Virus record (IMG/VR): IMGVR_UViG_3300047299_000127 | Location: 1-56,894 of that record | Length of the DNA stretch: 56,894 bases | Strand: one strand, 5' to 3' | Source: a virus | Taxonomy: Duplodnaviria > Caudoviricetes | Part shown: one piece after another, positions 2,138 to 46,854 of the stretch | Position numbering within the stretch: the first letter of the stretch is position 1 | Layout: each line of letters begins with the position of its first letter | Program-made: the position numbers and the translations under genes | Notes under the pieces: generated by a model | The model's database searches: none | The model's input: only the letters and a program-made list of their open reading frames with translations | Told to the model about the DNA's origin: nothing

Positions 2138-2146
2138 GGTCTCCAA

Positions 2147-2180: not shown

Positions 2181-2233
2181 ACCTTTGGCGCTTGCGCGCC
2201 GACACGTCACCGGCCACAGGGGCCGGATCTGGC

Positions 2234-2680
2234 TTAGGCGGCGCGGTAGAGCAGCGTCACGCCCACTTCACCAGCGGCCTTGGTGGCAGCGCCAGCAGTG
2301 AACTTCATGCCGACCTTGCGGTCGCCAGCGGCGGCGGCAGTGCGCGCCAGTTCCTTGCTCATCACAGCCACTTGGCCACCGGCCTGGCAGACGGTCAGGC
2401 CGGAGCCCCAGACCACTTCCAGATCGGTACCGGCTGCGTTGAGCAGGCCCACCGAAGCCACAATCGTGGGCGTGTTGTTGGTGTCCAGGTCGTCGCTGTC
2501 CACGTACAGAGCCACCGGCACGGAGCCAGCGGGCAAGATGCCCACAGCGCCGATGTCGTTGGCGTCCAGGTCAGCGGCCACCAGTTCCAGCGGGTAGCGC
2601 ACGGCGGCGACTTCGGAGCAGTCGCAGGTGATGGTTGGCTTGCGGCCATCCAGGTAGTCGTTCGATTTGGTGAAAGACAT
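2234..2680 (-). CDS. Putative capsid decoration/minor capsid protein
   Basis: 148 aa beta-rich protein directly downstream of the major capsid gene; AGGAG SD. Confidence 0.65.
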   Translation of the reverse strand: MSFTKSNDYLDGRKPTITCDCSEVAAVRYPLELVAADLDANDIGAVGILPAGSVPVALYVDSDDLDTNNTPTIVASVGLLNAAGTDLEVVWGSGLTVCQAGGQVAVMSKELARTAAAAGDRKVGMKFTAGAATKAAGEVGVTLLYRAA

Positions 2681-2715
2681 TTGTATTTCTCCTGTTCAGT
2701 TTGCGAATCGCCCGA

Positions 2716-3831
2716 TCAGCGGGCGGCTGCGGCGGTGTCCAGAGAGAACACACCGAAATCTTGGCTACCGGCCTCGGTATCGAAGCGAACCTTCTTGATA
2801 CCGAAGATGGCGGAGGTCGTGATGACCACCTTGTCGCCGTTGTCACGGGTTTCCTCGTGCCAGTCGTAGCGCAGGTTGGTGCCCGGCGAGCCGAAGGCGA
2901 CCACGGCAGCCTGGGAGCCCAGGAACAGACCGCGAGCGGCTTCCACGTTGCCGCCAGCGCCAGCGTTGGCGAAGCGGATGACGTTGCGGTGGCTGTGCAG
3001 GATCACGCCGCGATACATGCCCAGCGAGCCCTTGAACAGCGGCGAGTTGCGGCCTTCGGCGGCAGCGGCGGCCTTCTGGATGTCCATCCACTGGCCGGTC
3101 TGCGTGTTGGCGCGCAGATCGTCCTCTTGGAAGGTGTGCATCACGCACACGAAGGTCTCGTTGCCATCGATCTTGCAGGGCTGCAAAACGGGAATGTTGG
3201 TTGCGCCGCCGCCTTGGCTGTCAGCCTTGGTCTTGGCACGATCCACCAGGCGCAGATCGAACTTGTCGGCTGCGTCGATGTTGTTGAAGGCCGTGGCGTC
3301 ACCGCCGAACAGGTTGTGGTTGCTGTCCGGATTGGTCAAGCCGTTGCCTGCGCGACCTGCGTAGTTCAGGGGCAGCAAGAAGTTGGGGTTCACGCCGCGA
3401 GCGCCCGACAGGTAGATGAACATCAGTTCATCCATCAGGCGAGCCCACCAGCTGGACTGCTGGCGCTTGGCTTTTTCGCGCAGATCGTGCAGCGTGCGCT
3501 TGCGGGTCATGCGACCGCCAGTGTTCACACCGCAACGAGCCTGATCGATGTAGATCTGGTCGGTGTAGAACTTCTGGCCTTCTTCCTTGCCCTCCAGGAT
3601 GTCCTCGCCTTCGACGGGGGCCATCTTGAGTTCGGCAAGCAGGTCGTAGCTGATCTGTTCGCCAGCGTCCGATTCCAGATCGGTCAGGATCTGAACGGGC
3701 ACTTCGGCCTCAGCGCCACGCGCCATGAAGCGCTGGTTGAAATACGACTTCTGGGAAGTGTCGTGGGCAAGCAGACCAGCCCAGCGCTTGACTGCCTTGG
3801 CGTCATTGACGCCGATGATGGTACGAGCCAT
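2716..3831 (-). CDS. Major capsid protein, N4-gp56 family (DUF4043-like)
   Basis: 371 aa; VEGEDILEGKEE, IDQARCGV, DLREKAK..WW, DFGV motifs. Confidence 0.92.
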   Translation of the reverse strand: MARTIIGVNDAKAVKRWAGLLAHDTSQKSYFNQRFMARGAEAEVPVQILTDLESDAGEQISYDLLAELKMAPVEGEDILEGKEEGQKFYTDQIYIDQARCGVNTGGRMTRKRTLHDLREKAKRQQSSWWARLMDELMFIYLSGARGVNPNFLLPLNYAGRAGNGLTNPDSNHNLFGGDATAFNNIDAADKFDLRLVDRAKTKADSQGGGATNIPVLQPCKIDGNETFVCVMHTFQEDDLRANTQTGQWMDIQKAAAAAEGRNSPLFKGSLGMYRGVILHSHRNVIRFANAGAGGNVEAARGLFLGSQAAVVAFGSPGTNLRYDWHEETRDNGDKVVITTSAIFGIKKVRFDTEAGSQDFGVFSLDTAAAAR

Positions 3832-3906
3832 GGAAATACTCCTTCAAGGTTGAACTCAAAGGGAGCACTTCCTGCGCACCCGAATCACATGGCCGATAGG
3901 CCACGT
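3832..3906 (-). promoter_or_regulatory. Structured capsid 5' UTR: SD-sequestering stem and alternative GGA-loop (CsrA-type) hairpin
   Basis: GGAAGUGCUCC (3872-3862) pairs with GGAGUAUUUCC (3842-3832); alternative hairpin GCGC-AGGAA-GUGC (3877-3865). Confidence 0.65.
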
Positions 3907-4106: not shown

Positions 4107-5083
4107 CAGCGGCCTCGTGCCCACTTCTCCCGCTGTGCGGGCGTCATCTTGGCAATGGCCGATTCAAGGGCATCGCCTTCGAGCGCATCGATGTCGGCAA
4201 ACTCACCGGCCACATCGCCAGGACCATCGCCACCGGGCACCTGCGCCAGCGTGGCGGGCGCGGCAGCCACTGGGGGCTTGCGGGCATCGTTGGCGGCCTT
4301 GGCTGCGGCAGCGGGGTCAACCTTGGGCGCGGGCGCGGCATCGGCAACGCCGTGCAGTGCCTTCACGCGCTTGTGGGCCTCGGTCAAGAACCAATCCATG
4401 GGCTTGTCCGAGTTCTCTTCACGTGCGGCCAGCACGCGCACGAACTGATCGAGGTCGGCTTGCTTGGCCAGGTCCTTGCGGTAGTCGATGCCGCCATCTT
4501 CCTTGGCCGCCGACAGCACGAAGCGGTCAACCGTGTTCTTCCACTGGTTTTGCGCGGTCTGCTGGGTCATCTCCTGGGAGATCTCAGCCTTGATGCGGGC
4601 TTGGTTCAACTCGTCGCGGCGCGTGAGCAGTTCGCCACGCTGCAACTCGAACTCGTCAAAGTCGATCTCGCCGGACTTGAACTTGGCTTTGAGGTCGGCT
4701 TCCTGAGTGGCCAGTGTCTTGACCTGATCGTCGTAGTCGCTGGGCAGCTTAGCGTCATACGTGGCCGTGACCGCGCTGGGCGGCATGGCGGGCTCTTCGA
4801 CTGCGGCAGATGCGGCGGGGGCATCAGCGGGTGCCGGGTCGGTGTTGGGGGCGGCAGCGGCGGCTGGTGCTGCGGGTTTGTTCTCGGCGGCGGGCGGTGC
4901 GTCCTTGCCTTCTACGGGCGGGGCGCTGGTGTCGTCATCATCGCCATCATCATCACCGTCATCGTCTGCGATGCGGCGCATCGCTTCCAGTTCGGCCTCG
5001 CTGTGCTCGGGGTCGTTGATGGCCGCGAGTTCTTCGGGGGTCATGGTGTCCAGGATGTCCTGGTCCAGAGTTGCAGCACTCAT
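4106..5083 (-). CDS. Putative capsid scaffolding protein
   Basis: 325 aa; acidic low-complexity N-terminus, coiled coil, C-terminal MTPAQREKW helix; upstream of the capsid gene. Confidence 0.75.
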   Translation of the reverse strand: MSAATLDQDILDTMTPEELAAINDPEHSEAELEAMRRIADDDGDDDGDDDDTSAPPVEGKDAPPAAENKPAAPAAAAAPNTDPAPADAPAASAAVEEPAMPPSAVTATYDAKLPSDYDDQVKTLATQEADLKAKFKSGEIDFDEFELQRGELLTRRDELNQARIKAEISQEMTQQTAQNQWKNTVDRFVLSAAKEDGGIDYRKDLAKQADLDQFVRVLAAREENSDKPMDWFLTEAHKRVKALHGVADAAPAPKVDPAAAAKAANDARKPPVAAAPATLAQVPGGDGPGDVAGEFADIDALEGDALESAIAKMTPAQREKWARGR

Positions 5084-5340: not shown

Positions 5341-5355
5341 TGCCATGCTTGCCAC
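5341..5355 (-). promoter_or_regulatory. Late-operon motif GTGGCAAGCATGGCA
   Basis: Exact copies at 5341, 9429, 43600 and 46840; near copy at 3915. Confidence 0.65.
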
Positions 5356-9428: not shown

Positions 9429-9443
9429 TGCCATGCTTGCCAC
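9429..9443 (-). promoter_or_regulatory. Late-operon motif GTGGCAAGCATGGCA
   Basis: Exact copy about 30 nt upstream of the portal operon. Confidence 0.65.
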
Positions 9444-16068: not shown

Positions 16069-16305
16069 ATGTCTGAAAACTTTTGGTGGCAGGCAGCCGC
16101 GCTCTTTTGGGCGGCTGTCTGCTTCTTCCGGGTGGGCGCGATGACAAAGGGCATTGCGATGAACCGCCGCACGTGGCTTGAGATCGGGCAGGCAGCGTTC
16201 ATCGTTGTGGTCCTCTTCGCCTTACTTACCGAGGGCCGTGGCTGTCGCAGTGCGGGCACGTCGAGCCTTGAGCCCGCCTCGTGCGTTGGGGATGCGCAGT
16301 GCTGA
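16069..16305 (+). CDS. Possible small two-TM membrane protein convergent with cro
   Basis: 78 aa with two hydrophobic segments; overlaps the cro 3' end; weak SD. Confidence 0.45.
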   Translation: MSENFWWQAAALFWAAVCFFRVGAMTKGIAMNRRTWLEIGQAAFIVVVLFALLTEGRGCRSAGTSSLEPASCVGDAQC

Positions 16306-16497
16306 TGTCCGCTTGTCGTGCTTCTCAAACCAGTCGAGCAGCGGCTGCACGGTGTCCAGGCGTGGCGAGCACTGGCCCGCATGGATGCGGCTTACGGTGG
16401 CCTGTGGCACCCCGCTCTCCTTAGCGATGCGGTTGTGCTGGCCAGCGAGTTCAGACAAGCGCCTGCGGAGGTAGTCGTAGATCGGTTCTTTGTTCAT
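16222..16497 (-). CDS. cro: Cro-like HTH repressor
   Basis: NRIAKESGVPQATVSRI HTH; divergent from the cI-like gene. Confidence 0.82.
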   Translation of the reverse strand: MNKEPIYDYLRRRLSELAGQHNRIAKESGVPQATVSRIHAGQCSPRLDTVQPLLDWFEKHDKRTSALRIPNARGGLKARRARTATATALGK

Positions 16498-16510
16498 GGC
16501 CCCCTGAGTG

Positions 16511-16562
16511 TATCCGTATCCGGATATTTAATCAACCACATCCGGATATCCATTTATGGAAT
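16511..16562. promoter_or_regulatory. Three operators (TATCCG-N4-CGGATA family) of the lysis/lysogeny switch
   Basis: 16511-16526, 16533-16548 and 16547-16562, between cro and cI. Confidence 0.8.
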
Positions 16563-16572
16563 CATTGGAACC

Positions 16573-17055
16573 ATGGAATCTCTACGACAACGACTTGCCC
16601 GCTTGATGCGGGAACTGATGGGCACAACGCTCGTGGACACACAGACCAAGGTGTCCGCGAAGGCGGGTGTGTCGCAATCCACAGTTCAGCGGCTGCTGTC
16701 GCTGGAACAGGCCGCGACCGTGGACCTCTTGGAGTCGTTGGCCAAAGCGTTTGGCGTCAAAAATGCGCAGTACCTGCTGCTTGAGCGTGAGGAAGCAAAA
16801 CTCTTATCACTTTGGTCGGGTCTCAATGCCGAGGACCGGCAGACCGTTCTGGGCTTTATTCAGATGAAGGCCCAGGTCAAACCCGTGCACGATCTACCAG
16901 CGCAACTCAGCTTCGATTCCGGCACGCCGGTGTCGCCCGAGTTGCGCGCTGCGTCGAAGCGGGCATCGGTGAGGAAGCCGGGAACAGACTCCCTGAGCAA
17001 CCAATCAGATGACAAGGCAAGATCCACCACACCACGCGCACGGCGCAAGGCTTGA
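16573..17055 (+). CDS. cI: CI-like XRE-HTH repressor lacking an S24 autoprotease domain
   Basis: QTKVSAKAGVSQSTVQRLL...ATVDLLESLAKAFGV; LL.LW.GLN.EDRQTV.GF dimerisation helices. Confidence 0.8.
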   Translation: MESLRQRLARLMRELMGTTLVDTQTKVSAKAGVSQSTVQRLLSLEQAATVDLLESLAKAFGVKNAQYLLLEREEAKLLSLWSGLNAEDRQTVLGFIQMKAQVKPVHDLPAQLSFDSGTPVSPELRAASKRASVRKPGTDSLSNQSDDKARSTTPRARRKA

Positions 17056-17388: not shown

Positions 17389-17422
17389 TATCCGTTGACG
17401 AATATCCGGATACGGATATACT
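17389..17422 (+). promoter_or_regulatory. Early sigma70 promoter with two operators
   Basis: TTGACG (17395) and TATACT (17417), overlapped by operators at 17389-17404 and 17403-17418. Confidence 0.75.
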
Positions 17423-17455
17423 TGGACACATCAGGAACTTTCAAAGGAGTCAGGA

Positions 17456-22120: not shown

Positions 22121-22162
22121 TATCCATATACGGTTGCATTGTTATCCGTATGCGGATATGAT
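22121..22162 (+). promoter_or_regulatory. Second early sigma70 promoter with two operators
   Basis: TTGCAT-N17-TATGAT; operators at 22121-22136 and 22143-22158. Confidence 0.75.
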
Positions 22163-28080: not shown

Positions 28081-28305
28081 ATGACCAGACTCATCAACCG
28101 CAAAACTCTTCTCGGAATGATCCCGCTGTCTGAGCGGGCGATCTACGACATGGAGCAGCGCGGCGACTTCCCGCGCCGCATTGCCCTCACCAGTCGCAAC
28201 GTGGCGTGGCAGTTGGACGAGGTGGAGGCCTGGATTCAGCAGCGCAAGCTGTCTGGCGTCCAGGCCATGCGCCCAGGCATCACGCCGCAGGCTGTGGCCG
28301 CTTGA
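28081..28305 (+). CDS. alpA: AlpA-family excisionase/regulator
   Basis: LSERAIYDMEQRGDFPRRIAL..RNVAW..DEVEAW; convergent with the integrase. Confidence 0.9.
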   Translation: MTRLINRKTLLGMIPLSERAIYDMEQRGDFPRRIALTSRNVAWQLDEVEAWIQQRKLSGVQAMRPGITPQAVAA

Positions 28306-29488
28306 GCGTCCACCCGTCGATCATGTCTGCCCAGTCCTGCAACATGGCCGTGCGCTGCTCGCGGTACTCGGCCTTGTTGTACACCGCCCTCACCCCCTTT
28401 TGTTCGTGGGCCAGGGCCTTCTCGATCCAATCCGTGTTGTACCCAGCCTCGTGCAGCAACGTGCTGGCCGTGCGCCGCAAGTCATGCGGCCCGAACTTGG
28501 CCAAGGCCTTCCCGTCCTTCTGTGCATTGGTGTAGACCACCTCCAGCACCCGGTTGAGCGTGGCCGAACTCATCGGCTTGTCGATGTCGTAGCGCGATGG
28601 CAGCACATAGTCTGAGCCCCCCGCAAAGGTCTTGAGCGCGATGAAGAAATCCAACGCCTGCCTGGACAAATAGACGTTGTGCGGATTGCGCCGCTTCATC
28701 CGCTCCTTGGGGATCGTCCAAACCCCCTCAGTGAAGTTGATCTCAGACCACTTGGCATCGGACAGTTCTGACTTGCGCACCAGGGTCAGCAGCAGCAGCT
28801 TGGCTGCCGCCCTGAACTGAGGGCCGGTGCCCACCGTGTCCAGGTACTGGTACATGATGCCGATTTCCTCGGGCGACAGCGCCCGCTCCCTGGGCTTGAA
28901 CTTGGCGATGGCCGAAGGTCGCACCAGGTCGGCGGGGTTGTCCACCTTCTTCCCGCGCTCAGAGGCCCAGCGGTAAACCTGCATCACGATCTCGCGCACG
29001 TGCACAGCGGTGGCCGGTGCGCCGCGCTCCACGATGGTGTCTGTCAACAGCCGCAGATCCTCGTGCGTGATTTCTTCGAGCAGCTTGGCCGCGAACTTGG
29101 GCTTCAACTCGCGCTCATAGACCGAGCGGCGCATGTCGCGGGTGGAGTCGGCCATCTCGTAGCCGCGCAGCCACTTCTCAGCCCATGCGCCAAAGGACTT
29201 GGCATCCTTGACCCGCGCCTTGTCGCGGGCCTTCTCTCGCGCCGGAGATCTGCCATCGGCAATCATCCGCTTGGCCTCGTGCAGGCGCTCGCGGGCCTCA
29301 GCCAGCGTGAGCCCGCCCGTGCCGTATCGGCCAATGGTCAAAGTCTCCTGGCGACCGTTGATCGAGTAGTTGTAGCGAAAGGACACCGCACCGGCAGGCG
29401 TCACCGCCACATACATGCCATCGCGGTCGGGCACCTTGTACAGCGACTCCTTGGGCTTGAGGTTGCGCAGCTTGGTATCGGTCAGCAT
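28280..29488 (-). CDS. int: Tyrosine integrase, P4-like with arm-binding domain
   Basis: MLTDTKLRNLKP..DRDGMYV N-terminal arm domain; R(KSE), HDLRR, LAH, YN catalytic residues. Confidence 0.96.
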   Translation of the reverse strand: MLTDTKLRNLKPKESLYKVPDRDGMYVAVTPAGAVSFRYNYSINGRQETLTIGRYGTGGLTLAEARERLHEAKRMIADGRSPAREKARDKARVKDAKSFGAWAEKWLRGYEMADSTRDMRRSVYERELKPKFAAKLLEEITHEDLRLLTDTIVERGAPATAVHVREIVMQVYRWASERGKKVDNPADLVRPSAIAKFKPRERALSPEEIGIMYQYLDTVGTGPQFRAAAKLLLLTLVRKSELSDAKWSEINFTEGVWTIPKERMKRRNPHNVYLSRQALDFFIALKTFAGGSDYVLPSRYDIDKPMSSATLNRVLEVVYTNAQKDGKALAKFGPHDLRRTASTLLHEAGYNTDWIEKALAHEQKGVRAVYNKAEYREQRTAMLQDWADMIDGWTLKRPQPAA

Positions 29489-30015: not shown

Positions 30016-33000
30016 TCACTTCACCTTCTCGGCCAGGTCTCGCATGATCTTGGTCTTTTTCTGGACCTCGACCTGCACGGCCTCCTGGAACTCATCTTGG
30101 GAGATCCGGTTGGTCTGACGCTGGCGCTTGAGTTGGGCGATGTTCTTCTCGACCTCAGCGATCTCGGCCTGGGCCTTGGCGTTGAGGTTGCGGCGCAGAA
30201 CGTCAGCCGGGTAGCTGCCCAGCTTCACCCCGAAGGATGAAGCCACGGCCTGGGCCACCGACATTTCACGCCCAAACGGATCGGTGCGGCCCTGGGTGGC
30301 CTCCACCACGCCCGTGGTGGCGTAGGTGCCCGGCAGGCCCAGCACATTGGGCGCAAAGGCCTTGTACAGGTGATCGGCCACCTTCTCGGCCTTCTGCAAC
30401 GGGGTGTCGGTGTCCAGGGTAATCGGTTTTCCGGTGAATGCCGACTTGTTGAACACCACTTCGCCAAACAGCACCAGCGGACCGCCAGGCATCATGCCCG
30501 GCAGGACCGGCACGGCAGCTTGGCCAGCGCCCACGTCAAACACATCGCCTACCGGGATGAAGCGGCGGATGTCCAGATAGACCGGCGAGCCGTGCTGATC
30601 GTTCCAGGGCATGCGGATGAGCTTGGGCACCATGCCCCAGATCTTCCCGGCCTTCTCTTCGGGCAGCAGCTTGCGCTCTTCATCGTCGCCATCGCCACCG
30701 GCCAGCATGCCGCCCAGCGCGTTGAGCGCACCGGCCAGCATCATCAGCTTCATGAGCTTGTGCGGCTTCTTGCCCGCGATCTCGGCCAGCATGGGCACAG
30801 CGCGGTAGGTGAAACTGATGAACGGCCAGGCCGACTGGCGCATCGCCTGAATCCACGGGGCATTGATGTGGTAGTCCAGGAATGAGCGGCGCGAGGCCTT
30901 GCCTGCATCGATGTCGGTTGCGCCTTCTTCCTTGGCCTTGAGCCAGGCAGCCAGGCGGAAAACATCGTCCTCGGCCTGGTACAGGTCGATCAGGCTGCTT
31001 GCCTCGGTACCGATGGCCTTGCCGGGCTTAGATCCCTTGAAGGCCTCCCAGGCTGTCGGGAAACGCAGCATCAGCGCGTTTTGCAGCGCCGACATCACGC
31101 CCACCTCAGCCTGGGCGGACTGCGCACCAGTGGCGGCCAACTCCTGCTCCAGCTTGGCCAACAGGGGCTCCAGCTGGTCCTTGGCGATCTCGTTCGTCAC
31201 CCATGAACCCACATCACCGCCCGAGTCGGTGTAGCGGTTCAGGATCTCGCGGGCGGCCTCGCGGTCGGCAATCCCGGCCTTGGCCAACTGGTTGCCCAGG
31301 TTGCCCAGCGCGCCCTTACCCTCACGCTGGCTGGCGGCCAGGATCAGGCGCAGGGACTTGGCCACGTGAGCCGCGCCCACGTCATGCCAGTCGGCCATGA
31401 CGAAGTTGGACATGACGTTGTTCATGTGCACGGCAGGCGACAGTGCGGTCTTGGCGGTTTTCCACATGCTCAGGATCTGGGCATAGGTGTCACCGAAAGG
31501 CTTGAACTGGCCATTGACCACCTGGCGCAGGTCATTCCAGACCGGGCCAGGCAGGTAGCGGCCAGCGAGCTTGCCGTACTTGGCCACGTTGGTGCCGCCG
31601 ATCTTGGTGTCGGGCACGCGCACCCACTCGCCGGGCTTGAAGGTGTCGCGGTACCGCTCAGAGGCCTCCACCACCTCGCCGGGGATGGTCTCACCTTCTT
31701 TCATGGCGTAGCTGTGCGCCATCCACTCCAGATAGCGGCCCACCTCCACGTCATGGATCATGCCGTGCAGTGTCTTGGCGATGGCAAAGCGGGCCTCATC
31801 GATCTCGCCCATGGATTCGCGCTCGTCCTTGGTGAAGTCGCGCCAGAAGATGACGTTCTCGCCCTTAACGTCCCGCACCTCGAACGTGCCAGCCTTGGAC
31901 CATTCCGAGTACTGGCTCGGGATGGTTTCACCGGCTGGCCAGTACGCCACCTCCAGCAGCTTGCCCAGGGCCTTGCCTTCCATGCCTTCAAGCGGCTTGG
32001 TGCCCTCGCCCGATGCGGCGCGGCGCTCCAGGCGCACGAACTTCTCGCCCTTGAGACCTGCATCGGCCTTGCCCTTGACCAGCTTGCGGCCCCACCACTC
32101 GGGCGCTGTGTTCTTGAGCTTGGCCATGGTGGCGGCCTCGGTCAGGCCCCGGCCCTTGTACTGGTCGCCCAGGATGGAAATCACACGGGCGCGCTTGGCT
32201 TTCTCGCCAGCGGTCTGCTCCAGGATGTGCTTGGCGTAGCTGCGGCGCAGGTAAGCGAACTTGTTGGCCTCGTAAGCCTCTGGGCTCAGTTGGCCAAGTC
32301 GGACAGCCTCACGCGAGAGCTGATCGATCATCTTCTGCACGTCCTGCAACACCTTCACCGATTCCTCGGGCAGGCCTTGCATCATGGACACATAGGCCTT
32401 GGGGTCGGCACCGTCCATGTTCATCCACTCGTAGGCCACGCGAGACTCTTCGCGGGTCAGGGTGGAGAGCTTTTCGATCAACTCGCCAGCCTTGCGCAGT
32501 TGGACACGCTGGCGGCCTTGCAGCAGCACGCGCTGATCGATCACCGCCTGGGGCACGCCATAGTCGGCAACCACGCCCGCCTTGATGGTCTCGGGGGTGT
32601 AGCGGTCCAGCAGGTAGCCCGCCCGGTCGTAGATCGCGCCGGTCAGGCGCTCGATGCCGGTGATCCGGGTCAAGCCCTTGGCCAAGGCATCCAGCGGGGC
32701 GCGGCTGCCTGCTTTCTGGCTCAGGATCTCGTCGGCGCGCTCGCGGGCATCCTTGCGGCGCGAAAGCATCACGCCACCCTCTGCCGGGTTCTTTTCGCGC
32801 CACTTGGCGGCCAAGCGCTCAAACAGCGGGTAGTCCTTGGCCAACATGTCCTCGACATCAGCAAAGCCTCGGGCGCGGGCCTCGGTTTGCAGCCACTTCT
32901 CCTGGCGCTCGATGTCATCCTTGAGGGTTGTGGACAGGCGGGTGTCGCCCATGTACCCCACTCGGCGCTCGGGGCTCTTGCCCGCCACGTACTCGCGGGC

Positions 33001-36000
33001 ACCGCGCACCAGTTCAGCGACAAACAGGTCGGCACGCTGCTGCTGGGTCAAACTGCCTTCCAGCAAGTCGCTGAGTTTGTTGGCCAGGTTCGTGAAACCA
33101 TGCTCCAGCAACCAGTCGCGCACCATGACCGTGACCTTGCGCCAGCCCTTGAGCTTGGCCAGTTGGGCGGTCGGGATGTCCACAATAGCCTCTTCCACGG
33201 CCTCGGCAGTGGACATCTTGTTGCCGCGCTTCTGAATGTCGAAGGCTGCCCGGCGCACGTTGGCGTTGTTGGCGTACACCAGCGCCATGGCGGTCTTGAG
33301 GCTATCGCCCAGCAAGGCGCGCAGGCCATAGTGAGCGGCCTCATGCTCAAGCAGCACGTGCTCTGCGCGGTTCATGTCAGAAAGACCTGATGCGAACAGG
33401 TACAGCGCGCCCTCGTGGAATGCGCCTTCAACGTCATCCCAGGCGTCCTGGCGGATGATGTACTCGCGCAGGCCCTTGGGTGCTTTGCTTGGATCTGCCA
33501 GCACCGTCACCTTGGGCATGTTGGGCATCTTGGCCTTGACGCCGCGCACCATGGCATCCAGGGCATCGACGCTCACGCTGCCAGAGGCTGCGCCAGCGCC
33601 GCGAGCCAGTCGGGTGTCCTCGGCGGGCTTGACCTCTGACGCCTCGGTGGCCATCCAGTCCTCGGCAGCCCCGCCATTGGTAGAGACTGCCTTGGTGATG
33701 GCCTCATCGGCGCTGGTGGCCTGCACATCGAAGCCCAGGCCAGAGGCCTTGTTTTCCACGCGCCAGGTCTTGGGCTTGGAATCGAGCGCGATCATGGTTT
33801 CCAGATCGTTGGCTTCCTTCACCTTGTCGGCCAGCATGCCAGCCATGGGGAAGGGCGACTCCAAACGGCTGGCCAGCGCATCGATCTGGGCCTTGGCCTC
33901 GGTGATGCGCTCGCGCATCTTGGCGGGCAGGCGTGCCACATCCGCCACCGCGTTTTGCGCACGCATGGCCACGCCGATGGCGCTGGTACCGGCGTCAGCG
34001 ATCAGCAGCAGGGGGTCAGGCGTGCCCAGCATCACCTTGGTCATGAACTGGCCTGCAACGGTCTCGCCGCCGAAAACGACAGGGAAACCGGAGATCTCGC
34101 CAATGGTCATGGGCTTGGTCTCGCCCTTGGCGGTCAGGTCCTTGTACTTGGCGATCAGGACTTCGGCCCAGTCGGCGCGCTCGGCCAGGGTCTTGCCCAT
34201 GACCTTGGCGCGGAACTTGTCGCCAGACAGGTCCTGCACCATGGCGGCCATCTTCTCGGCCTCGGGCATGCGCTTTTCGTTGAACTCCACGGTTGTGCGC
34301 GCCATGTCGTACTGGGACTTGAAGCGGGCGCGCTGGTCCTCGTGGGCGCGGTACAGGCGCTGGAGTTTTTCGATCTCGGCGCGAGCCCCTGCCAGTTGCA
34401 GGATGCGCGGATCTTCGGCCACCATGGCAGCGGCCAGGTCGTACTGGCTTTGGCTGTCCAGATCCTCCAACTCGCGCAGGTTCGCGTCACCGCTCAAGGC
34501 CTGATCGATGAAGAACTGTTTGGATGCGAGCATCTTCCACATGTTCTCGTCGTAAGTGCCCTTGGCGGCGTAGGCGTACAGCTGCACCAGCGGGTTCTTG
34601 TTGCCCTGGCGCACGATGCGGCCTTCGCGCTGCTCCAGGTCAGCCGGGTACCACGGCGAATCCAGGTGGAACAGGGCTTTGAGGCGTTGCTGTGCGTTCA
34701 CGCCCGTGCCCATGTTCTTGCTGGAGCCCACCAGCAGGCGCACCCGGCCAGCGTTCACGTCCTTGAACAGCTTGAGCTTGTCCGCCGACTTCTTGTAGTC
34801 GGACATGAAAGCCACCTGATTCATGGGCACACCAGCATCGCGCAAGCGCTTCTCGAACCAGGCGCGTGCATTGAAGCCGCGATTGGCGGCCACGCCCTCC
34901 CCAAAGCCCAGGTCAGAAAACACCATCGTGGCCGCGCCCTTGTTGGGCTCGACGTTGCCCGCCTTGTCTCGGTACTCCATGTCCTTGGTCTCATCCAGGA
35001 CACGAATCACGTCATCGATCATGCGGTTGAGCTTGGAGTCCGGGTCACTGGGCAGTGTCGGGTCCATGAAACGCATGTCGATGGCCGCCAGGCGGCCATC
35101 GCCAATGATGCGGATCATCGGGTCAGGGTTGTTCGGCTCGTCCTTGGTCGGCTTCCAGGCGCGGGACTTCTCCACACGGGCAGAGAGTTCAGACTGGTAC
35201 CCGTCGTAGGCCTCGGTCTTGGGCGTGACGATGATCCTGCGAGATCCACCCTCCACTTTCGGGCGCTTGTCGCCCAGCAGTGCGGCCAAGGTGTCCGAGG
35301 TCAAAACGTCCGCATACTCGCGGAACATCTGGGTCAACTCGGGCACGTTCACAAACTTGCTGAACCGGGTCACGGGCTCATACTTGCCAGCGGCATTGGG
35401 CTCCAGCACCGTGCGCTCGCGCCCGAACATCGAGGCCCAGGAATCGAAGTCCTCAATGCCGCGATCTTCCAGGGCCTGGCGGTCCATGAACTTCTGCACC
35501 GTGTACAACTCGGCCAGGGTGTTGGTCACGGGCGTGCCCGATGCCAGGACCAGCGAGCGGCCCGGATTTTTCTGCTCCAGGTAGCGGGCCTTCATGAACA
35601 GGTCAAAGGAACGGGCAGAGCCTTGCGGGCTGATGCCCTTGACCTGGCGCGAAGTCGTGAAATCGAGCTTGCGGAACTCGTGGGCCTCGTCCACGTAGAG
35701 CATGTCCACGCCCAACTCATCGAATCGGACGTTGGTGTCCTTGCCGGTCGATGCCATGGCAGCTTCCAGCTTTTGCTCCATGTTCTCGATCTGCTTTTCG
35801 ATCTGCTTGATGCGTGGGGACTTCTTGCCGCCCTTGCCATCCTCGGCCTCGGCCTCTTCTAGGGCAGCGCGCATGTAGTCCAGCTGCTCCTCGATCATCT
35901 GGCGCTTGAATTCGGGGTCCAGGTCCAGCAGCTTGAAAGCGCTGTGCGTGATGACCACGCCATCGAGGTCAGACAGAGCCACACGCGAGACAAAGCGGCG

Positions 36001-39000
36001 GCGGTTGTCGGTGTGGAAGTTCTTTTCGTCGGCCACCATCAGGCGGGCAGCCGGGTAAAGCATCTGCCACTCGTGCGCAAACTGCTTGAGCATGTGGTTG
36101 GGCACCACGATCATGGGCTTCTTGATGAGGCCAAGGCGCTTTTGCTCCATGGCCGAAATGACCATCTGGAAGGTCTTGCCCGAACCCACGGCGTGCGCCA
36201 GGTAGGTGTTGCCGCGCTGGATGATGCGCCAGGCCCCGCGCTTGACGTGATCGAACACGCTGAACGCCTTGGAGGTGCCCGGCAGCGTCAGGTGGCGACC
36301 GTCAAAGGATCGCGGCACCGTGGTGTTGAAGGTGTCGTTGTAGATCCGCACCAGGCTATCGGTGCGCTCGGCATCCTTCCAGATCCAGTTGCCGAAGGCC
36401 TCGCGCAGCGCTTCGAGCTTTTGGTTGGCGGCTTCGGTACCGGCAGCATCAAAGACCGTGGTCTTGTCCTTGCCGTAGCCCTGGCTCTTGGTGATGCGGA
36501 TGGGCCTGCCGGTCAGGGCATGCTCCATGATGTCCGTCACGTTGCGGTCAGCCGTGCCCCAGTCGGCGGTGGCCTGCATGGTCTTGCCGCCACTTGTCTC
36601 CTGAACAGACCATTGCTTGGTGCGCTCATTCCAGGACACCTCAGCACGCACACCGGCCAACTCGCGCAGGAATTGGCTGTACACAGCGCCGGGCACCCAG
36701 TTCATGCCAATGCCCACGTTGATCTGGCTCGGGGTCTTGGGCGCGGGCTGGGCAGCTTCCAGGGCGGCCACATTGCGCTCAAAGCGCTTGTCGGTCTTGG
36801 CAGCCGTGCGGGCTTCATCCAGTTTGCGCTTGACGTTGCCGCTCAAGTACTCGTCGGCAGTCACCCACCCAGCGGCAGGGTCCTCATAGATGGCAGAGCC
36901 CAGGGCCTCGATGGTCTCGGCCTCGGTCAACCCCACGCGCTGGGCGATCAGGGGAATGTCCACGTGCCCCACATCGTTGAGCGATGACAGCATCGCATCG
37001 ACGGGGGTGTTGACGCTGGCGGCATCGGGCTTGCCCAGCACGCGCTCGGTCAGGAAGGCGCTGGGCTTGATCTCGCCCGTGTCCTCGTTGATGGTCTCCA
37101 GCGCCGCGACCAGGGTGTAATCCGGGTCATCCTCCAGCTTGCGCAGCAGGGTGTAGACGCGCACCTGGGTTTCATCGGTGTAGGTCTCGCCCGTGTCCTC
37201 ATCGACCACCTTGGACTTGACGGACTTGAGCGTGAATTGGTTGATCTGGCCGTGCTTCTTGGTGAAGTCGGCATAGGCCTTTTGCAGCGCCTTGATGCTG
37301 GTTTCCCAATCGCCCTCGTTCAACTGGTCGTAGTGCGCCTGCTTGAGGGCATCGCGCAGCGGCACGAAGTCCTTGACCAGTTGCACATCGGCCTGCGAGC
37401 GCAGTTCCACGCGCTGGCCCACCCCACCCTCGCGCACCATCAGCGCGCCGGAGTCGCTGACGTAGTAGTTACCCTCTTTCTTGGCCTTGGGGTTGAAGTC
37501 GATCTCGCGGACCTTGGCCGCTTCGGCGGAAGATCCGCGCTCGGCGGTGTAGATGCCCTCGGGCAGGCGGTTGATCGCCTTGTCGAACAGGGCCTCGATG
37601 TCGCCATCGAGCGGCGCGACCGTGTATTCGCGGTCCTTGTACATGGAGCCCGCATCGGAGTGCGTGCCCAGCACCATGTCAGGGTTGGCCACGAAGTACT
37701 CGTTGATGTTGTAGTCGTTGCCGTTGACCTTGAGCGGCACCGACTTGCCCCAGGACTGCGCGCCCTCAAAGGTCTCGCCGGGCACTTTCTTGCGCAGGAA
37801 GATCACATCCGTGACCACCTCGGTACCGGCGTTTTGCTTGAAGGCGGTTTGCGGCAAGCGAATCGCGCCCACCAGGTCCGCCCGGTCGGCCAGGTACTGG
37901 CGCGCCTTGTCGTCGAGCTTGTCCATGGTGTAGCGGCTGGTGACGTACACCACCAGGCCGCCCGGCTTGGTGCGATCAATCGACTTGGCAAAGAAGTAGT
38001 CGTGCAGGCTGAATGCCCGCTTGGCGTACTCTGGATCGCTCAGGATCTTGGTGCCGGAGAACGGCGGGTTGCCGACCGACACGTCATAGAAGTTCTTGGG
38101 CAACTTGGAGTCCACGAACGACTCAACCAGGATGCGCTCGTCGGGAAACAGTTGCTTGAGGATTCGGCCCGTGAAGGAGTCGAACTCGATGCCGGTGTAG
38201 ATCGAGTTGGCGGCCATGGCGGCAGGCATGAGGCCTGGGAACACGCCAATGCCAGCGCCCGGCTCCAGGATGGCCCCACCCTTGAAACCCATGCGGTCCA
38301 AGGCGCGCCACATCGAGCGCACCACTTCCTTGCTGGTGTAGTGGGCGTACTGGGTCGAGCGTGAGGCCTCGGCCCATTCCTTCTCGGACATGGACGCCTT
38401 GAGGCGGTTGCGCAACTCCACCCACTTGCGCACGCTGGGCTCGGGCTTGGCCTTGTCCAGCATCTCGCGGGTGATGTTGCCCGCCGTGTACCAGGTCAAC
38501 TGCGGGTTGCGGTATTGCAGGACCCGGAAGGCAGGCGCGTACTCGCCATATCGGGCGTTTGTCAGGAACGGGCGATCACCCAGGGCGGCAATGGCCTCGT
38601 CGTAGTTGGTCAGTGCTTCGGCGGCCTTGTCCAGCTTGTCGCCAAACAGATTGTTGGCGATCTCAGACGCGCCCCAGCCAATGAACTTGGCCAGCTTCGC
38701 CTGCTCTTCACGGGTGGCCTGGCGGCCATCCTTCTCCAGCGACAGCAGCAGTTCAATGGCTTCGAGGTTCTGCTCGGCCTTCTTGAACCAGCTGCCCTCG
38801 TAGGTCAGGTCGGAGGCTGAGAAGGCGTAGTTTCGTCCGGACTTTGCGGGGATGTCCCGTCCTGCGGGAACTCCAGCATTTCGGCCAGCACGATCTCGCG
38901 GTTGAGGCTGCTTGCCGTTCGCATCCTGGCCGCGCACTCCATCGGCCCCAGCTTGTCCCACCCCTCCTTGATCCGCTGCGTTTGCGTCAGCGTCACCACC

Positions 39001-42000
39001 TGCGAAGAGATCTGATCCGCCAGGTCCTGGGCGTACTCGTTGAGTTGGCCGCTTGCCGCCAGGCTGCGATACAGCGCGGGTGCCTTCTCCTTGATCGCGT
39101 CCTTGACCAGCGTTATCGTTTGCATCTTGATCTCCAGGTTTCTCGCCAGTATATCCATTTCCGGATAATTGTGGTACAGTTGTGTCGAGAGGTGTTGAAA
39201 TGAGAATCCCAGACGAATTCCCGGACGGTTGCCGTTTCGTACCGACCTTCGGCGGTGACTGGTTTGTTGAATTCCCTGATGGCAGGGTGTTCAAACTGGC
39301 CGACGATGGCGTGTCGCTTGCCCCTGCACGCGAGCTACCGGCTGGCGGCATATCGGTCAGCGCTGATCCGGCTGGCTTCTTGGCCGCCGCTGCAAACGCT
39401 GCATCGTAGAACTCGGTCATCGACTGACCAATCTCGCGCCCAAGTGGTGATTCCTTGGGCGCTTCTCTTTGTGCCTCGTACAGCTTGTGACCCTGGCCCT
39501 CTTTGGCAGCCAGCATCTGCGGCACGTTGATCTGGATCTCACCGATCACGCCGTTAGGCATCACCACGTTGACCAGCACATCGGCATAGCCTCCGTAAAC
39601 CTGGCGATCTTCGGCGGGCAGTTCGCCGCCACTCCAGGTCATGGCAAATTCGCTGGTGCGGTTTTTTGGCTTGCGCAGGAGCTTGAATTCTTTTTCGATC
39701 TCGTCAAGCACCTGCTGGGCCTCGGCGTAAGACTGCACAACGATGGTTGATCGCAGCATGTCCTTCATGCCGCCAACATCGAAGTTTTCTTCAGTGACCA
39801 GCTTCTCCACAGACCGCTTCAATCCCTTGATGGGCGCGATCATTTGGCCGATGGCATTGGTGCGACCAGCGATGTCGATCACCTTCTGGTCATACTCTGC
39901 CTTCACATCCTCAGCCTTGCGAATGATTGGCGTCAGCATGCCCTCTGCGCGCTGACGCTCTTCATTCGTGATCGCAACGGCGGGGCGATCCTTGTAGTAC
40001 TTCTCGACGTAGCCATCGGCACGCTCAAGCACACCGGCATCCATGAAGGTGTCAACGCTGGGCGGGGTGAAGTTGTCCCGCTTCATGTCATACGGGCGGC
40101 CATCGATCATGGCGGCCTTGGGCTTGTCTGCCAGGTTGGCCAGCGCATCACCGAACAGGTCTTGCTGGCCCATGCGGGCCTCGGCAGCGGCAAACAGATC
40201 GTCCACACGCTGGGCCGACTCGCGGGCCATGGCCTGCTCGGCAGCCTTGCGGTACAGATCGGTGCCGATCTTGTTCCAGAAGGTCTTGAGCTTCGGATCG
40301 TTCTTGAGCGCCTGCTTGACGTAGGCCACCAGGTCCTTGAGGCTGTAACCCACTTCCTTGATACCGGCCTCCATCAGGCGGATCAGCGTGGGCATGAGGT
40401 CCGGGGTCTTTTCCGGGACCATCATCAAGCGTGTGTGCTTGGTGGCGATCATGGCCAGATCAGCCATGGCGTCCTTGAAGTCTTGGCGGGCCTGGGCACG
40501 CGCCTGGTCGGGCGCAGCACCCTCGGAGCGCTTGACACTCGGAAACTGGAAAGTGGCGGCCATCAGGTCACGGATGGGAGCGTCGAACTCGATCACCTTG
40601 ACCGGCTCATTCATGGCCAGAGCAGCCACCCACTGGTGATGCCCGTCCAGCACGTAGCCATCGGCAGAAGCCAGCACGGAGCGGTCAACGCCATCGCGCA
40701 CCTCTTTCCAGCGCTCGGCTTTCTTGCTTGAAAACTCGGCCTGGGTGGGCTTGAGGTCAGACGCAGAGCGCTCGACTGTCTTGTGCTCGATGCCCTTGCC
40801 TTGCAGGAACTGGATCAGCGCGCCGCGATGCTCGCCCTTGACCTGGGGCATTTCGGCGCGGGGAATGCCGATGGTGCCCGTGTCGGGCGGGAACATCACC
40901 CATTCGCTTTGCTCGCCTGCTTCGGTTGCGGCAGCGGCGCGGGCAGCCCCATCGCCTTGATCGCCGCCGCGATTGCCCGGCGCATCTTGGGATTGCTGTC
41001 CACTTGGCGCATCAGCTTGCGCACCTTCTCCAGGGTCTCGCCGCTGGGTGTCTTGGGCATTGTTGCCATCGTCGTTTCCTTGTGCAGATTTCAGGAGGTC
41101 GGCGCGTGCCGGTGCGGTGTCGGTGTCGCCAAAGATCGAGCCTTGGCTGGGGTCTCCAGCAGCTTCCAGGGCCTCGTAGTAGCGCTGCACGAACTCAGCA
41201 ATGCGGCGCGGGCTGCGGATGTTGTCGGCCAGCAGGGTCAGCAACTGGGCAGCCTCGGGCGAGTACTTCGCGCCCGTGAGGTCGCCTTGGCCAAGTTCGT
41301 CGGCCACGCTCCAGCCCTTTTCCTTGAGGGCGGACAGACCTTCAACGGCAGACAGCAGATCCGGCGCGATGTCGGCCTCGTACAGGGTCCCGGCCTGCAT
41401 GCGCTCGCGGGAGGCGGCAATGGTCGGGGCCACACGCACCAGCGCCTTGGTGACGTTGCGCAGGTTGTCATCCATGCTCTCGGTCATGCGGCGCAGCGTG
41501 GGCGAGTCGCCGTAGGCCTTGGCCAGCACGGCGTTTTGGATGCGGCGATAGCCGAACGTGGACAGGCGGCCATCGGACTCCACCATGTCCGACTGCTCAG
41601 TGATCGGCAGCATGGCCATGAACTGGCGGATGAAGTCGTAGGAGGTGGCAAAGTCACCGGCATCGTCGGGATTCAGCCCCTCCAGGGAAGCCAGGCGCTT
41701 GGAGTCCGACAGGGCCTGCTCGCTGGGGCTCATGCGCTGCACGGTCGAGGCGTTGGCCTGGCGTGCAAACTCGGCACGATTGACTTGTGTTGAGCGAACC
41801 CGCACCAACACAGGCTTTTCCATGGCATCGACGGATTCGGGTGTGATACCAAACTGGGCGGAGTTCTCGCGCAGCCAGGCCTTGTAGTCCTCGGCCTTCT
41901 GGCCATTGGCCTGATACACGCGCTTGAGGGCGATGGTGCGGGCGTTGCCCGACTCCACCAGGCCATCAGCGCCAACAATCGGCGCGCCAGTGGCAGCGTC

Positions 42001-43566
42001 AGCAGACAGGCCCAGGCGTGCTGGGTCGAGCTTTTGCACGATGCTGGAGACCTGCAACTCGCTGGCCGAACGGCTGCGGTCGCGGGGCTGCAACTCCTGG
42101 GGATACAGACTGTTGGGGCGCAGGCTCTCGTCGTGCGAAGTCACCAGGTCAGCGGCATTCATCAGAGCGTACTGGCCATCGAGCTTGACGCCTGCCTCGG
42201 TCGAGAAGCTGGTAGATGCGCCGGGCTGGGCCTTTGGCCAAGACTGGGCGATGCTGGCGCGCTCGCTGGCCAACTCCTGGGCTTTGGTGGCCAGTTCGGC
42301 GCGCTCCTGGTCGAAGGCGGGACCGTAGCCGTTCTCGGCGGTCAATTCCTGGGTGCGCTCGGCAATGCGCGAGATCTCACCATCGATCTCGCCCACACGG
42401 TCCAGGGCAGTGAGCGATACCGGCGTGCGCAGGGCTTTCTCGGCCTCGGTCGAGTCCCCTACCCCAACGGCTTCCACGCTGGTGGCGGTTCCTCGCGCTG
42501 GGGTTGCTCCATCGACTGGGCTTGCTGCGCCAGCAGGTCCTGGCGCTTGCGTTGTTTGACCTTGCGGGGTTTGTCCCTGGTCGGTTCCTTGCGTTGGGTC
42601 TTGCTCATTGATTCGATTGGGCAGTGCGTTGCGGGCAGCCGAATACGTGTTCATGCCGCCGCCCATACCGGCACCGGCCACCATGCCCTGGGCAGCGGCC
42701 TCGGCCACACCCTCGTCCCACGGCTTGCCCAATGCCAGGTTGGTGAACACCTGTTCTTGGGCGGACTGCGGCAGTTCCTCCAGCACGCCCTCTTTGAACG
42801 TGCCCTTGGCGATCTCTTTGCCAGCCTGCACCAAGCTCTGGCGCTGCGCGCCGCCCATGCCTGCAACGGCTGCGCCGACTTCGGCATCGCGGAAGCCAGG
42901 AATCTTGGACGTGACCAGGCTGATGGCCGCTGTGCCCAGGCCGCCAGCAACGGCGGAAGGGGCGGTATCGGTGTAGTCGCGGCCAGCCTGGCGGCCAGCC
43001 TCCTGGATGCTGCCTGCGGTCATCGCGCCTTCGGAGGCTGCGCCAATGCCTGTCAGCTTGGCGATGGTTGCGGGCTTGGCCAAGAAAGCGGCAGCCTCAG
43101 CGGTACCGGCCTTGATGCCAGCTGAGGCCAGCATCTTGGAGGCGGCAGCGCGCACGGCAGCAGCACCGCCCAACATCATTGGAGTGGACTCAACAATGGA
43201 GCCCACAGCGGCGCTGGGGTTCTGCACCAGGGCCTTGGTCGTGTCCACAAAGCCCTTGGCCCCAGCAACCTCACGATTGGCCTGCTGGCGCGGATCGCTG
43301 TAAAAGTCGCTCAGGATCTGCTTGGTTTGCTCTGGGTCGTAGCCAATGGCCCCCAGGCCCTTGCCCACCAGGTTGCCGGTGGCCAGATCTGCCAGGCCTA
43401 CGGCAGACTCTCCCAGCCCGACAACGCCTTTGGCCAGATCGATGCCGGAGTCGGCAATGGCCTCGCCCCAAGTGCGATCGCGCTGCTCTGGTTTTTTCTT
43501 CGACTGCTCTTGGTCCGGAACAAACCGACCACTAGACTCAGAATTTTCGTCCGGTACAAATGCCAT
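30016..43566 (-). CDS. 4516-aa DarB-like polyvalent virion protein: ddrB-ParB, ParB-like, RelA/SpoT-like NTase, N6-adenine MTase, SNF2 helicase, HExxH metallopeptidase, C-terminal LPD-like region
   Basis: LQPRDR..GAPIV..VESGNAR; [13 protein letters not shown]; K..R..EK..D..R.TI..GY.D..EIQ..GHKLYE; EPGAGIG/NPPF; [28 protein letters not shown]; HEAAHYGL. Confidence 0.9.
38805..39125 (-). CDS. Nested TnpV-like protein (106 aa), out of frame within the giant gene
   Basis: GGAG SD; [21 protein letters not shown]...REIVLAEM resembles TnpV; the host frame here is a low-complexity linker. Confidence 0.65.
   Translation of the reverse strand: MQTITLVKDAIKEKAPALYRSLAASGQLNEYAQDLADQISSQVVTLTQTQRIKEGWDKLGPMECAARMRTASSLNREIVLAEMLEFPQDGTSPQSPDETTPSQPPT
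39152..39167. promoter_or_regulatory. Operator TATCCATTTCCGGATA inside the giant gene, between divergent nested ORFs
   Basis: Matches the cI/cro operator family; local AT-rich patch with TATACT (minus) and TGGTACAGT (plus). Confidence 0.7.
39200..39409 (+). CDS. Nested antisense protein (69 aa) directly behind the RelA/SpoT-like domain; candidate immunity protein
   Basis: GAGGTG SD; globular-looking [33 protein letters not shown]. Confidence 0.6.
   Translation: MRIPDEFPDGCRFVPTFGGDWFVEFPDGRVFKLADDGVSLAPARELPAGGISVSADPAGFLAAAANAAS
40896..41069 (-). CDS. Nested out-of-frame ORF (57 aa) after the ddrB-ParB region
   Basis: AAGGA SD; [41 protein letters not shown]; GC3-rich codons in this frame; translated by hand. 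Confidence 0.55.
   Translation of the reverse strand: MATMPKTPSGETLEKVRKLMRQVDSNPKMRRAIAAAIKAMGLPAPLPQPKQASKANG
42459..42608 (-). CDS. Nested out-of-frame ORF (49 aa, basic) in the first linker of the giant gene
   Basis: [28 protein letters not shown]; host-frame codons turn A/T-rich at third positions; no clear SD. Confidence 0.4.
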   Translation of the reverse strand: MSKTQRKEPTRDKPRKVKQRKRQDLLAQQAQSMEQPQREEPPPAWKPLG

Positions 43567-43573
43567 TGCGCAA

Positions 43574-43614
43574 CCTCATCAGAATGTCTCCGATGAGGGT
43601 GCCATGCTTGCCAC
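43574..43614 (-). promoter_or_regulatory. Late motif plus SD-occluding hairpin upstream of the giant gene
   Basis: GTGGCAAGCATGGCA at 43614-43600; CCTCATC/GATGAGG stem includes the GAGG SD. Confidence 0.6.
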
Positions 43615-46839: not shown

Positions 46840-46854
46840 TGCCATGCTTGCCAC
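46840..46854 (-). promoter_or_regulatory. Late-operon motif GTGGCAAGCATGGCA
   Basis: Exact copy at the head of the ejection-protein operon. Confidence 0.6.

Follow-up and report, generated by a model that had tools for sequence, protein, structure and literature searches.

We analysed a window comprising the whole IMG/VR virus record IMGVR_UViG_3300047299_000127 (56,894 bp), a complete phage with direct terminal repeats. Its giant gene for a polyvalent, DarB-like virion protein contains an enzyme domain of RelA/SpoT fold. The DNA that follows the domain can be read on the opposite strand as a gene for a protein of 69 amino acids (aa), which we favour as the immunity protein of the domain. A second nested gene, TnpV-like and in the +1 frame of the giant open reading frame (ORF), lies in the same cassette. 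Coordinates are collected in Table 1.

The phage is Bcep22-like and temperate, and it encodes a tyrosine integrase (28280-29488) and an HTH_3 (helix-turn-helix) regulator (16573-17055). Pfam searches with the giant protein returned ddrB-ParB (residues 459-591), Eco57I methylase (1822-1896), SNF2 (2452-2643), and Helicase_C. ParB-like, methylase, helicase, and RelA/SpoT-fold domains are thus joined in one polypeptide, as in polyvalent proteins. The gene matched the DarB-like antirestriction genes of Burkholderia phages Bcep22, BcepIL02, DC1, BcepMigl, JC1, and CSP3 and of many Ralstonia phages, but the similarity to isolated phages was confined to the methylase part. DNA searches with the cassette gave no match among plasmids and only short matches, in the methylase part, among phages. 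A homologous protein of 4515 aa, JC1 gp69, was identified in purified virions by mass spectrometry with 51 unique peptides (excerpt of PMC9144972), and by this homology the protein of the window may be packaged and delivered with the DNA.

Related loci were collected by searching IMG/VR with the TnpV-like ORF, the domain, and a profile of the domain. The searches yielded 54 loci, 44 of them by profile, and 10 of these 44 lay on the same contigs as earlier ones. Loci with a domain score above 219 bits (35 of the 44 found by profile) form the strong-domain set used below; after removal of five sequence duplicates, 30 distinct loci and the window make 31 sequences. Across the cassette, the giant frame had 0 stops in the 30 distinct related loci (mean 492 nucleotides (nt)); the other two forward frames contained 90 and 168. 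This open frame led us to reject the idea that the giant ORF arose artificially, by assembly or fusion.

Table 1. Coordinates of the nested cassette and of related sites in the window
Feature	Position	Strand	Remarks
Giant polyvalent DarB-like virion protein gene	30016..43566	-	4516 aa; one unbroken frame through the nested cassette
Tas1/Apk-like RelA/SpoT-fold (toxSAS-like) nucleotide pyrophosphokinase domain	39376..40035	-	residues ~1178-1397 of the giant protein
Antisense nested gene, candidate immunity protein	39200..39409	+	69 aa + stop; wobble position common with the giant frame
Shine-Dalgarno sequence GAGAGG of the antisense gene	39187..39192	+	seven bases upstream of the ATG
Extended -10 element TGgTACAGT, putative promoter of the antisense gene	39172..39180	+	conserved among loci
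Operator-like palindrome TATCC-N6-GGATA	39152..39167		between two divergent -10 elements; overlaps the -10 of the TnpV-side promoter
-10-like hexamer TATACT, putative promoter facing the TnpV-like gene	39148..39153	-	+ strand of loci with the TnpV-like gene keeps AGTATA; canonical -35 not found
TnpV-like nested gene	38805..39125	-	106 aa + stop; +1 frame of the giant ORF; GGAG 6 nt upstream of the ATG
15-bp motif upstream of the giant gene	43600..43614	-	34 nt upstream of the start; common to head, portal, and capsid units
Operator copy, divergent switch region	16511..16526		between a 91-aa gene (16222-16497, -) and the HTH_3 gene (16573-17055, +)
Two overlapping operator copies, early promoter (TTGACG ... 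TATACT)	17389..17418		-10 overlaps the right half-site
Operator copies, second early promoter (TTGCAT ... TATGAT)	22121..22158		-10 overlaps the right half-site

A Tas1-like domain inside the giant protein

The original prediction, made from the sequence alone, had noticed RelA/SpoT-type motifs in the giant protein; they are present in the giant frame at about 39489-39828, and the expected fold was recovered by both profile and structure comparison. A profile built from 10 domain sequences matched a single entry among PDB sequences at E ≤ 10, namely Tas1 (6ox6_A; E 1.1e-13), with the motifs K..R...K, D..R.T, GY, EIQ, and GHK.YE aligned between the two. The AlphaFold2 (AF2) model of the domain was confident (predicted local distance difference test (pLDDT) 90.5; predicted template-modelling (pTM) score 0.86). 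Foldseek searches of the PDB with this model again placed Tas1 first (E 7.5e-8; template-modelling (TM) scores 0.62/0.69), ahead of SaEAS (an exported alarmone synthetase), SAS1/SAS2, RelP, Rel, SpoT, and CapRel. With 58 PDB matches at E ≤ 0.001, the domain has the synthetase fold of RelA/SpoT homologues (RSH). In the alignment of 31 sequences, of which the others were 39-68% identical to that of the window, 22 columns were invariant, among them K70, R74, K78, D92, R95, G149, Y150, E166, and H183 (domain numbering); their catalytic roles are presumed.

The domain also matched phrog_7625 (head morphogenesis, MuF-type; E 3.8e-5), and its nearest match in an isolate was Bordetella phage PHB04 (33.9% identity). 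In PHB04 (locus L068, 1583-3848) the arrangement is un-nested: a portal gene is followed in order by a gene for a 493-aa domain protein, a 69-aa ORF, a gene annotated as (p)ppGpp synthetase/hydrolase, and a Ser/Thr phosphatase gene. Because the profile, the fold, the invariant motifs, and the matches to the MuF-type PHROG and to PHB04 agree, we assign the domain to the Tas1/Apk branch of RSH-fold enzymes. By analogy with that branch, it is probably a toxin that makes (p)ppApp.

An antisense gene that accompanies the domain

Two divergent nested ORFs with Shine-Dalgarno (SD) sequences had been predicted behind the domain, and both were found as located, with GAGAGG and GGAG upstream. The plus-strand ORF spans 39182-39409, with its ATG at 39200. 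Its conservation wherever the domain occurs, another expectation of the original prediction, was observed in every locus with a close copy of the domain. A hidden Markov model (HMM) of the 69-aa protein matched the opposite strand in all 35 strong-domain loci (E 1e-11 to 9e-30), and in each of them the match started within a few dozen bases of the domain end. The homologues (30 distinct sequences) were 29-70% identical to the protein of the window. Regardless of which module follows in the giant protein (methylase-helicase, ParB-like, DUF7178/MuF_C, LPD39, or C-terminal), the gene remains beside the domain.

The signals for expression were also shared. A start codon was present at the aligned position in 35/35 loci (32 ATG, 2 GTG, 1 TTG). 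An SD-like word preceded it in 30 of the 31 distinct loci, as compared to 8.9% of random 40-mers from the same gene; a TANNNT hexamer stood at a fixed distance in 30 of 31 (1.5% of random 40-mers), and its extended form TGNTANNNT was found in 24 of 31 (0.2%). The best-conserved bases of this -10 element, namely hexamer bases T1 and A4 and the T in TG, coincide with wobble positions of the giant frame, while the adjacent first and second codon positions vary, which is the opposite of the pattern expected from selection on the giant protein. This comparative evidence argues for a promoter of the antisense gene with a conserved extended -10 element and no good -35.

Conservation of the two translations was compared over the first 50 codons of the cassette, where the antisense frame reached an identity of 0.480 and a BLOSUM score of 2.35 per column and the giant frame 0.429 and 1.82. 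In the neighbouring single-coding domain, used as a control, the true frame scored 0.509 and 2.53, and its antisense shadow, which carries 2-8 stops, 0.453 and 1.65. Within the cassette it is therefore the antisense translation that is better conserved than that of the giant gene, the reverse of the control region. The low-complexity peptide read in the giant frame (…PSGNST…GN.SG.FIS…) is the mirror image of the N-terminus of the small protein. Both frames are open, and at the level of sequence the nested frames are better conserved than the giant frame; on these grounds we regard the stretch after the domain as truly dual-coding. AF2 folded the 69-aa protein confidently (pLDDT 90.9; pTM 0.77) into four strands and a C-terminal helix.

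Other relatives showed variations on this layout. A prophage relative with the nested arrangement was found in cultured Hydrogenophaga intermedia S1 (locus L057). Among loci with weaker domain scores, all five listed (L047, L050, L051, L053, and L054; 88-160 bits) had a mechanically called opposite-strand ORF of 69-93 aa in the same place (~4430-4915); they may represent substitute immunity families or ORFs open by chance. Acidovorax soli carries a degraded prophage (L059, contig 958-3752) in which the giant gene breaks off just behind the Tas1-like domain, as an ORF of 868 aa; the small gene was convergent to it, with an overlap of ~49 nt. A segment of the upstream protein was duplicated ~1 kb downstream, beside an unrelated opposite-strand ORF of 577 aa. 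The locus could be a retained toxin-immunity remnant. In Acidovorax sp. A1169 (L062, contig 2896-3885), the domain was interrupted (profile positions 1-113 only; ORF end at 3243) and the small antisense ORF was still matched by the HMM (E 6e-11).

The original prediction had also proposed that the domain be modelled with the small protein, and the outcome favoured an interaction. The predicted complex reached an ipSAE interface score of 0.90 (runs 0.91, 0.89, and 0.90), as compared to 0.00 for the best of three controls. Partner pLDDT was at least 92, and the runs agreed in at least 96% of contacts. Among solved complexes, 58 of 80 reached this ipSAE mark, and among mismatched pairs 2 of 110 did; both counts are only rough since own alignments were used. 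The predicted interface includes K78, D92, G149, Y150, D152, E166, K178, and H183 and is tightest on the Tyr loop at 146-154. The 69-aa protein is thereby predicted to sit across the acceptor-site and catalytic cleft of the domain, and the model supports binding. Known (pp)pApp synthetases are neutralised by Tis1-type proteins that occlude the acceptor-nucleotide site near a conserved Tyr (excerpt of PMC11782079). As with Tis1-type genes, the small gene lies next to the domain in all 35 loci; its product's binding over the acceptor site is a prediction. Since no similarity to Tis1 in sequence or fold was found, the score is unlikely to stem from plain memorisation of how Tas1 and Tis1 are solved together; nor can the protein, on the same ground, be filed as a member of the Tis1 family. 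Fold, conservation, gene signals, dual coding, and co-occurrence are computed results.

Overall, we favour the reading in which the 69-aa protein is the immunity protein of the domain, at a probability of roughly 0.68. Several results weigh against it. The loci belong to one family of related phages, and the counts given above are not independent events. The Pfam RelA_SpoT model did not match the 4516-aa protein at E ≤ 0.1. The small protein belonged to no Pfam family (one of 31 members matched weakly), no PHROG, and no ESM Atlas cluster, and in a collection of 5.8 billion proteins it had only 42 relatives, none of them named. Profile searches of the PDB returned neither Tis1 nor any immunity protein at E ≤ 10, and Foldseek comparison with PDB folds gave a best E of 0.31, with no 6OX6 chain among the matches listed. 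Weak rows for a 'Cake' propeller and CPAP in the profile searches were taken as compositional, with no single significant stretch. Comparison by hhalign found no similarity between the 69-aa protein and the small ORF of PHB04, which itself had no PDB relative. The promoter-like hexamers originally noted on both strands hold up as a conserved extended -10 element (plus strand) and TATACT (minus strand), but not as canonical sites: a sigma-70 consensus scan of 38600-39700 returned 0 promoter-like sites with canonical -35 and -10. Diversity at the codon positions of the antisense ORF was ambiguous (0.346, 0.353, and 0.544 at positions 1, 2, and 3), a test made uninformative by the wobble position that the antisense and giant frames have in common. 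Nine weaker domain relatives (L047-L055) gave no HMM match for the small protein.

The RNA data are also a point on this side, consisting of unstranded short contigs over the antisense ORF from one metatranscriptome, with DNA carry-over possible. In this riverine metatranscriptome, X19, short contigs with 90-99% likeness match 39217-39408 as well as 38771-38951, outside the antisense ORF. The remaining RNA-labelled runs touch different parts of the window, again as contigs and with no strand, and gaps in coverage carry no meaning. One further X19 contig (record 12) matches 39169-39202, up to the antisense start codon, after which its letters differ. By our own reading, the continuation encodes the N-terminus V-P-D-R-F-P-E-G-C of a relative, which would place relatives of the small gene in that RNA library.

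Three other explanations were weighed. The 69-aa protein might be real and bind the domain and yet be no inhibitor, acting instead as a folding or packaging chaperone, a head-loading adaptor, or an allosteric regulator. The predicted complex does speak of contact and not of inhibition, Tas1-like type VI secretion system (T6SS) effectors are said to need chaperones (excerpt of PMC10083569), and neither PDB profiles nor Foldseek linked the protein to a known immunity family. A chaperone need not, however, sit where the predicted interface lies, over invariant residues of the catalytic cleft and the Tyr loop of the acceptor site, and in described cases the small genes that tightly adjoin toxSAS (small alarmone synthetases that are toxic) are immunity or antitoxin genes (excerpts of PMC10083569 and PMC11782079). 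We consider such a non-inhibitory role unlikely.

The conserved element could instead be an internal antisense promoter and its RNA, controlling the giant gene by transcriptional interference or antisense action, with the ORF incidental to it. It is true that the -10 element is the most sharply conserved feature, that the operator overlaps a -10, and that long open antisense frames are common in this GC-rich giant gene. An incidental ORF fits poorly, however, with an SD sequence and a start codon held at fixed spacing in nearly every locus, with protein-level conservation of the antisense frame above that of the giant frame, and with a confident AF2 fold from the alignment and a confident, specific interface prediction; we judge an RNA-only element improbable. 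That neither nested ORF is expressed, and that both merely mirror a motif conserved in the giant linker, seems to us highly improbable. With coinciding wobble positions, conservation of the giant peptide would carry over to the antisense translation, and the codon-position test cannot separate the two frames. Yet the giant-frame peptide, though of low complexity, equals the enzyme domain in conservation, the frame comparison comes out the reverse of the single-coding control, and the promoter bases are conserved at giant wobble positions. In the TnpV-like ORF, moreover, the wobble position of the giant frame is the least variable (0.421 as compared to 0.463 and 0.482), and the Pfam TnpV model is matched above its cut-off.

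Operators, late motif, and the TnpV-like gene

The 16-bp palindrome between the two nested genes had been proposed as a copy of the phage operator, and it does belong to a repeated family with members at the HTH switch region and at early promoters. The pattern TATCC-N6-GGATA occurs in the window in four exact and three one-mismatch copies, as compared to 0.21 expected from shuffles; the exact 16-mer of 39152-39167 is unique in the window. On the minus strand, the nested site repeats the composite of the early promoter at 17398-17425, a half-site followed by TATACT. In the related complete phages G002 and G003, a variant motif (TATCC-N5-CGGTT) was found four times each, one copy at the nested promoter and three elsewhere in the genome, as compared to 0 for a reversed control pattern. 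Because the motif co-varies in these two phages, each phage is suggested to place its own operator at the nested promoter. A repeated palindrome sited at switch and early promoters is what would be expected of a phage operator, and the site is, from its sequence, a candidate repressor site.

The switch region itself (16222-17055) consists of the 91-aa minus-strand gene, which had no Pfam match and appeared HTH-like by eye, and the divergent plus-strand HTH_3 gene (160 aa), with at least three operator-like sites between them.

The giant gene is preceded by a different motif. Its 15 bp recur exactly on the minus strand at 43600-43614, 46840-46854, 9429-9443, and 5341-5355, with two further copies at two mismatches (0.52 expected). 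This distribution suggests that a separate regulon, probably a late one, includes the giant gene, and the motif is probably a late-promoter or activator site; its GG/GC spacing did not fit sigma-54 by our count. Both sets of sites would be consistent with an antidote made early under repressor control and a giant protein, with its toxin domain, made late.

The second nested ORF spans 38805-39158, with its ATG at 39125 and GGAG as the complement of 39132-39135. A start at the upstream ATG at 39158 was rejected; the homologues start at the position of 39125, which has the SD sequence. The TnpV-like character named in the original prediction was borne out by Pfam (PF14198, E 3.1e-7, 30.8 bits as compared to a cut-off of 27), the match covering profile positions 31-110 of 111 and leaving the N-terminal 30 positions unmatched. 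Weak rows for V-ATPase G and other coiled coils in searches with the TnpV profile were taken as matches of helical bias, and tblastn of the ORF against the isolated phage collection gave no match at E ≤ 0.01.

The TnpV-like gene had also been taken as part of the toxin module, and there the evidence points elsewhere. It was present, with an ATG in each case, in 22 of the 35 strong-domain loci and absent from the other 13, and a role as second immunity protein of the domain was rejected on that ground. It co-occurs with the methylase-helicase module instead. A methylase-helicase region like that of the window followed the TnpV-like gene within ~500 residues in 21 of the 22 loci, and in the remaining one (L044) the contig end truncates the locus. 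Of the 13 loci that lack the gene, none had such a region within the 544-1334 residues available, and Pfam searches of four of these 13 found no methylase or helicase. From its sequence we regard the TnpV-like ORF as a real gene that is not tied to the toxin domain and that may serve the DarB-like methylase-helicase module as a partner.

Known systems and significance

The closest comparison is with Tas1 (Apk1)-Tis1, the type VI (p)ppApp synthetase effector and immunity protein of Pseudomonas aeruginosa (PDB 6OX6). Tas1 is the closest solved relative of the domain by both profile and fold, in both systems the small partner is encoded right beside toxin-coding DNA, and in both the partner lies over the acceptor site, as reported for Tis1 (excerpt of PMC11782079) and predicted for the 69-aa protein. 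The systems differ in the carrier, a PAAR/T6SS protein as opposed to a phage virion protein, in the placement of tis1 as a separate downstream gene on the same strand, and in the lack of detectable sequence or fold similarity between the partners. Closer in its setting is Apk2-BcTis1-Aph1, a MuF-fused (p)ppApp synthetase toxin of phages and prophages with two adjacent immunity genes (excerpt of PMC10083569), which has in common with the window a phage head-associated carrier of a Tas1-like domain and an adjacent small immunity gene. There, however, the toxin domain is C-terminal, the immunity genes are separate and on the same strand, and a hydrolase is present; in the window, the domain is internal to the giant protein, the partner gene is antisense and wholly inside its ORF, and no hydrolase was seen. 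PHB04 has the classical Apk2-BcTis1-Aph1 layout.

RelA/SpoT is among the domains listed for phage-type polyvalent proteins (Iyer, Burroughs, Anand, de Souza, Aravind 2017; excerpt of PMC5512222). The proteins described there are, like that of the window, of a giant multi-domain class with DdrB-ParB, methylase, and SNF2 helicase, but no nested partner gene is described and the examples come from Spirochaetes and epsilon-proteobacterial prophages; the text of the paper contains 0 occurrences of 'antisense', 'overlapping', 'immunity protein', or 'TnpV'. P1 DarB and the DarB-like proteins of Bcep22 and JC1 resemble the case of the window in genome type and in a homologous core of methylase and helicase. 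In the DarB-like giant genes of isolates, tblastn found no Tas1-like domain at E ≤ 1e-5; the antisense ORF was not searched for there.

Gene arrangements with some likeness exist elsewhere. In pore-forming colicin operons, the immunity gene lies on the opposite strand, with its own promoter, and is transcribed against the toxin gene, but it sits between genes and not inside the toxin ORF. The phage gene Rz1 lies wholly inside Rz, on one strand with it but in a different frame. In neither case does a protein gene run antisense inside the ORF of the protein that it targets.

The proposed mechanism is as follows: the giant DarB-like virion protein would carry a Tas1/Apk-type pyrophosphokinase domain, probably a (p)ppApp-making toxin. 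The low-complexity linker DNA 3' of the domain would be a gene on the opposite strand, with its own extended -10 promoter, SD sequence, and ATG. Its 69-aa, beta-rich product would bind over the acceptor-nucleotide and catalytic cleft and act as an immunity protein, protecting the cell that makes the giant protein and possibly also shutting off the domain after delivery. The antidote would probably be under phage repressor or early control, because its promoter region holds a copy of the phage's own operator. Nesting would make the toxin domain and the antidote gene an inseparable unit that moves together when the domains of polyvalent genes are shuffled. The TnpV-like +1-frame gene would be a separate real gene that goes with the methylase-helicase module. 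Toxicity, the enzyme product, inhibition, timing, and delivery are the parts of this scheme that we infer.

A broader proposal is more tentative, and we hold it as a possibility that is rather doubtful as a whole. The linkers of giant polyvalent virion genes might be a regular home for partner genes, with toxin and antidote forming an indivisible recombination unit and the TnpV-like gene serving as partner of the methylase-helicase module. The operator might make the antidote early, and the delivered toxin might act as a short, self-limiting pulse, in which ATP depletion or a burst of (p)ppApp would stall host defences until the domain was switched off by the first transcripts of the incoming genome.

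The ingredients are known already: toxin-immunity pairs, Tas1-like toxins on phages, and polyvalent proteins with RelA/SpoT domains. Our literature searches for nested or antisense immunity genes found no relevant title or abstract, and an immunity-type gene that is antisense, wholly inside the ORF of its own target, and conserved over dozens of phages is not described in the literature searched. We class the finding as a toxin-immunity pair with an unprecedented gene architecture. The window contributes an operator copy at the nested promoter, a TnpV-like gene nested in the same cassette and linked to the methylase-helicase module, and a two-frame analysis with its control. If our favoured reading is true, the overlap would be among the clearest functional antisense protein-coding overlaps in bacteria or phages, and it would explain the survival of a producer cell whose giant protein has a toxin domain inside. 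Gene callers, moreover, would be seen to miss systematically the partner genes in such "linkers" of giant phage genes. A defined experimental system would then be offered by related prophages of nested layout in cultured, harmless hosts such as Hydrogenophaga intermedia S1.

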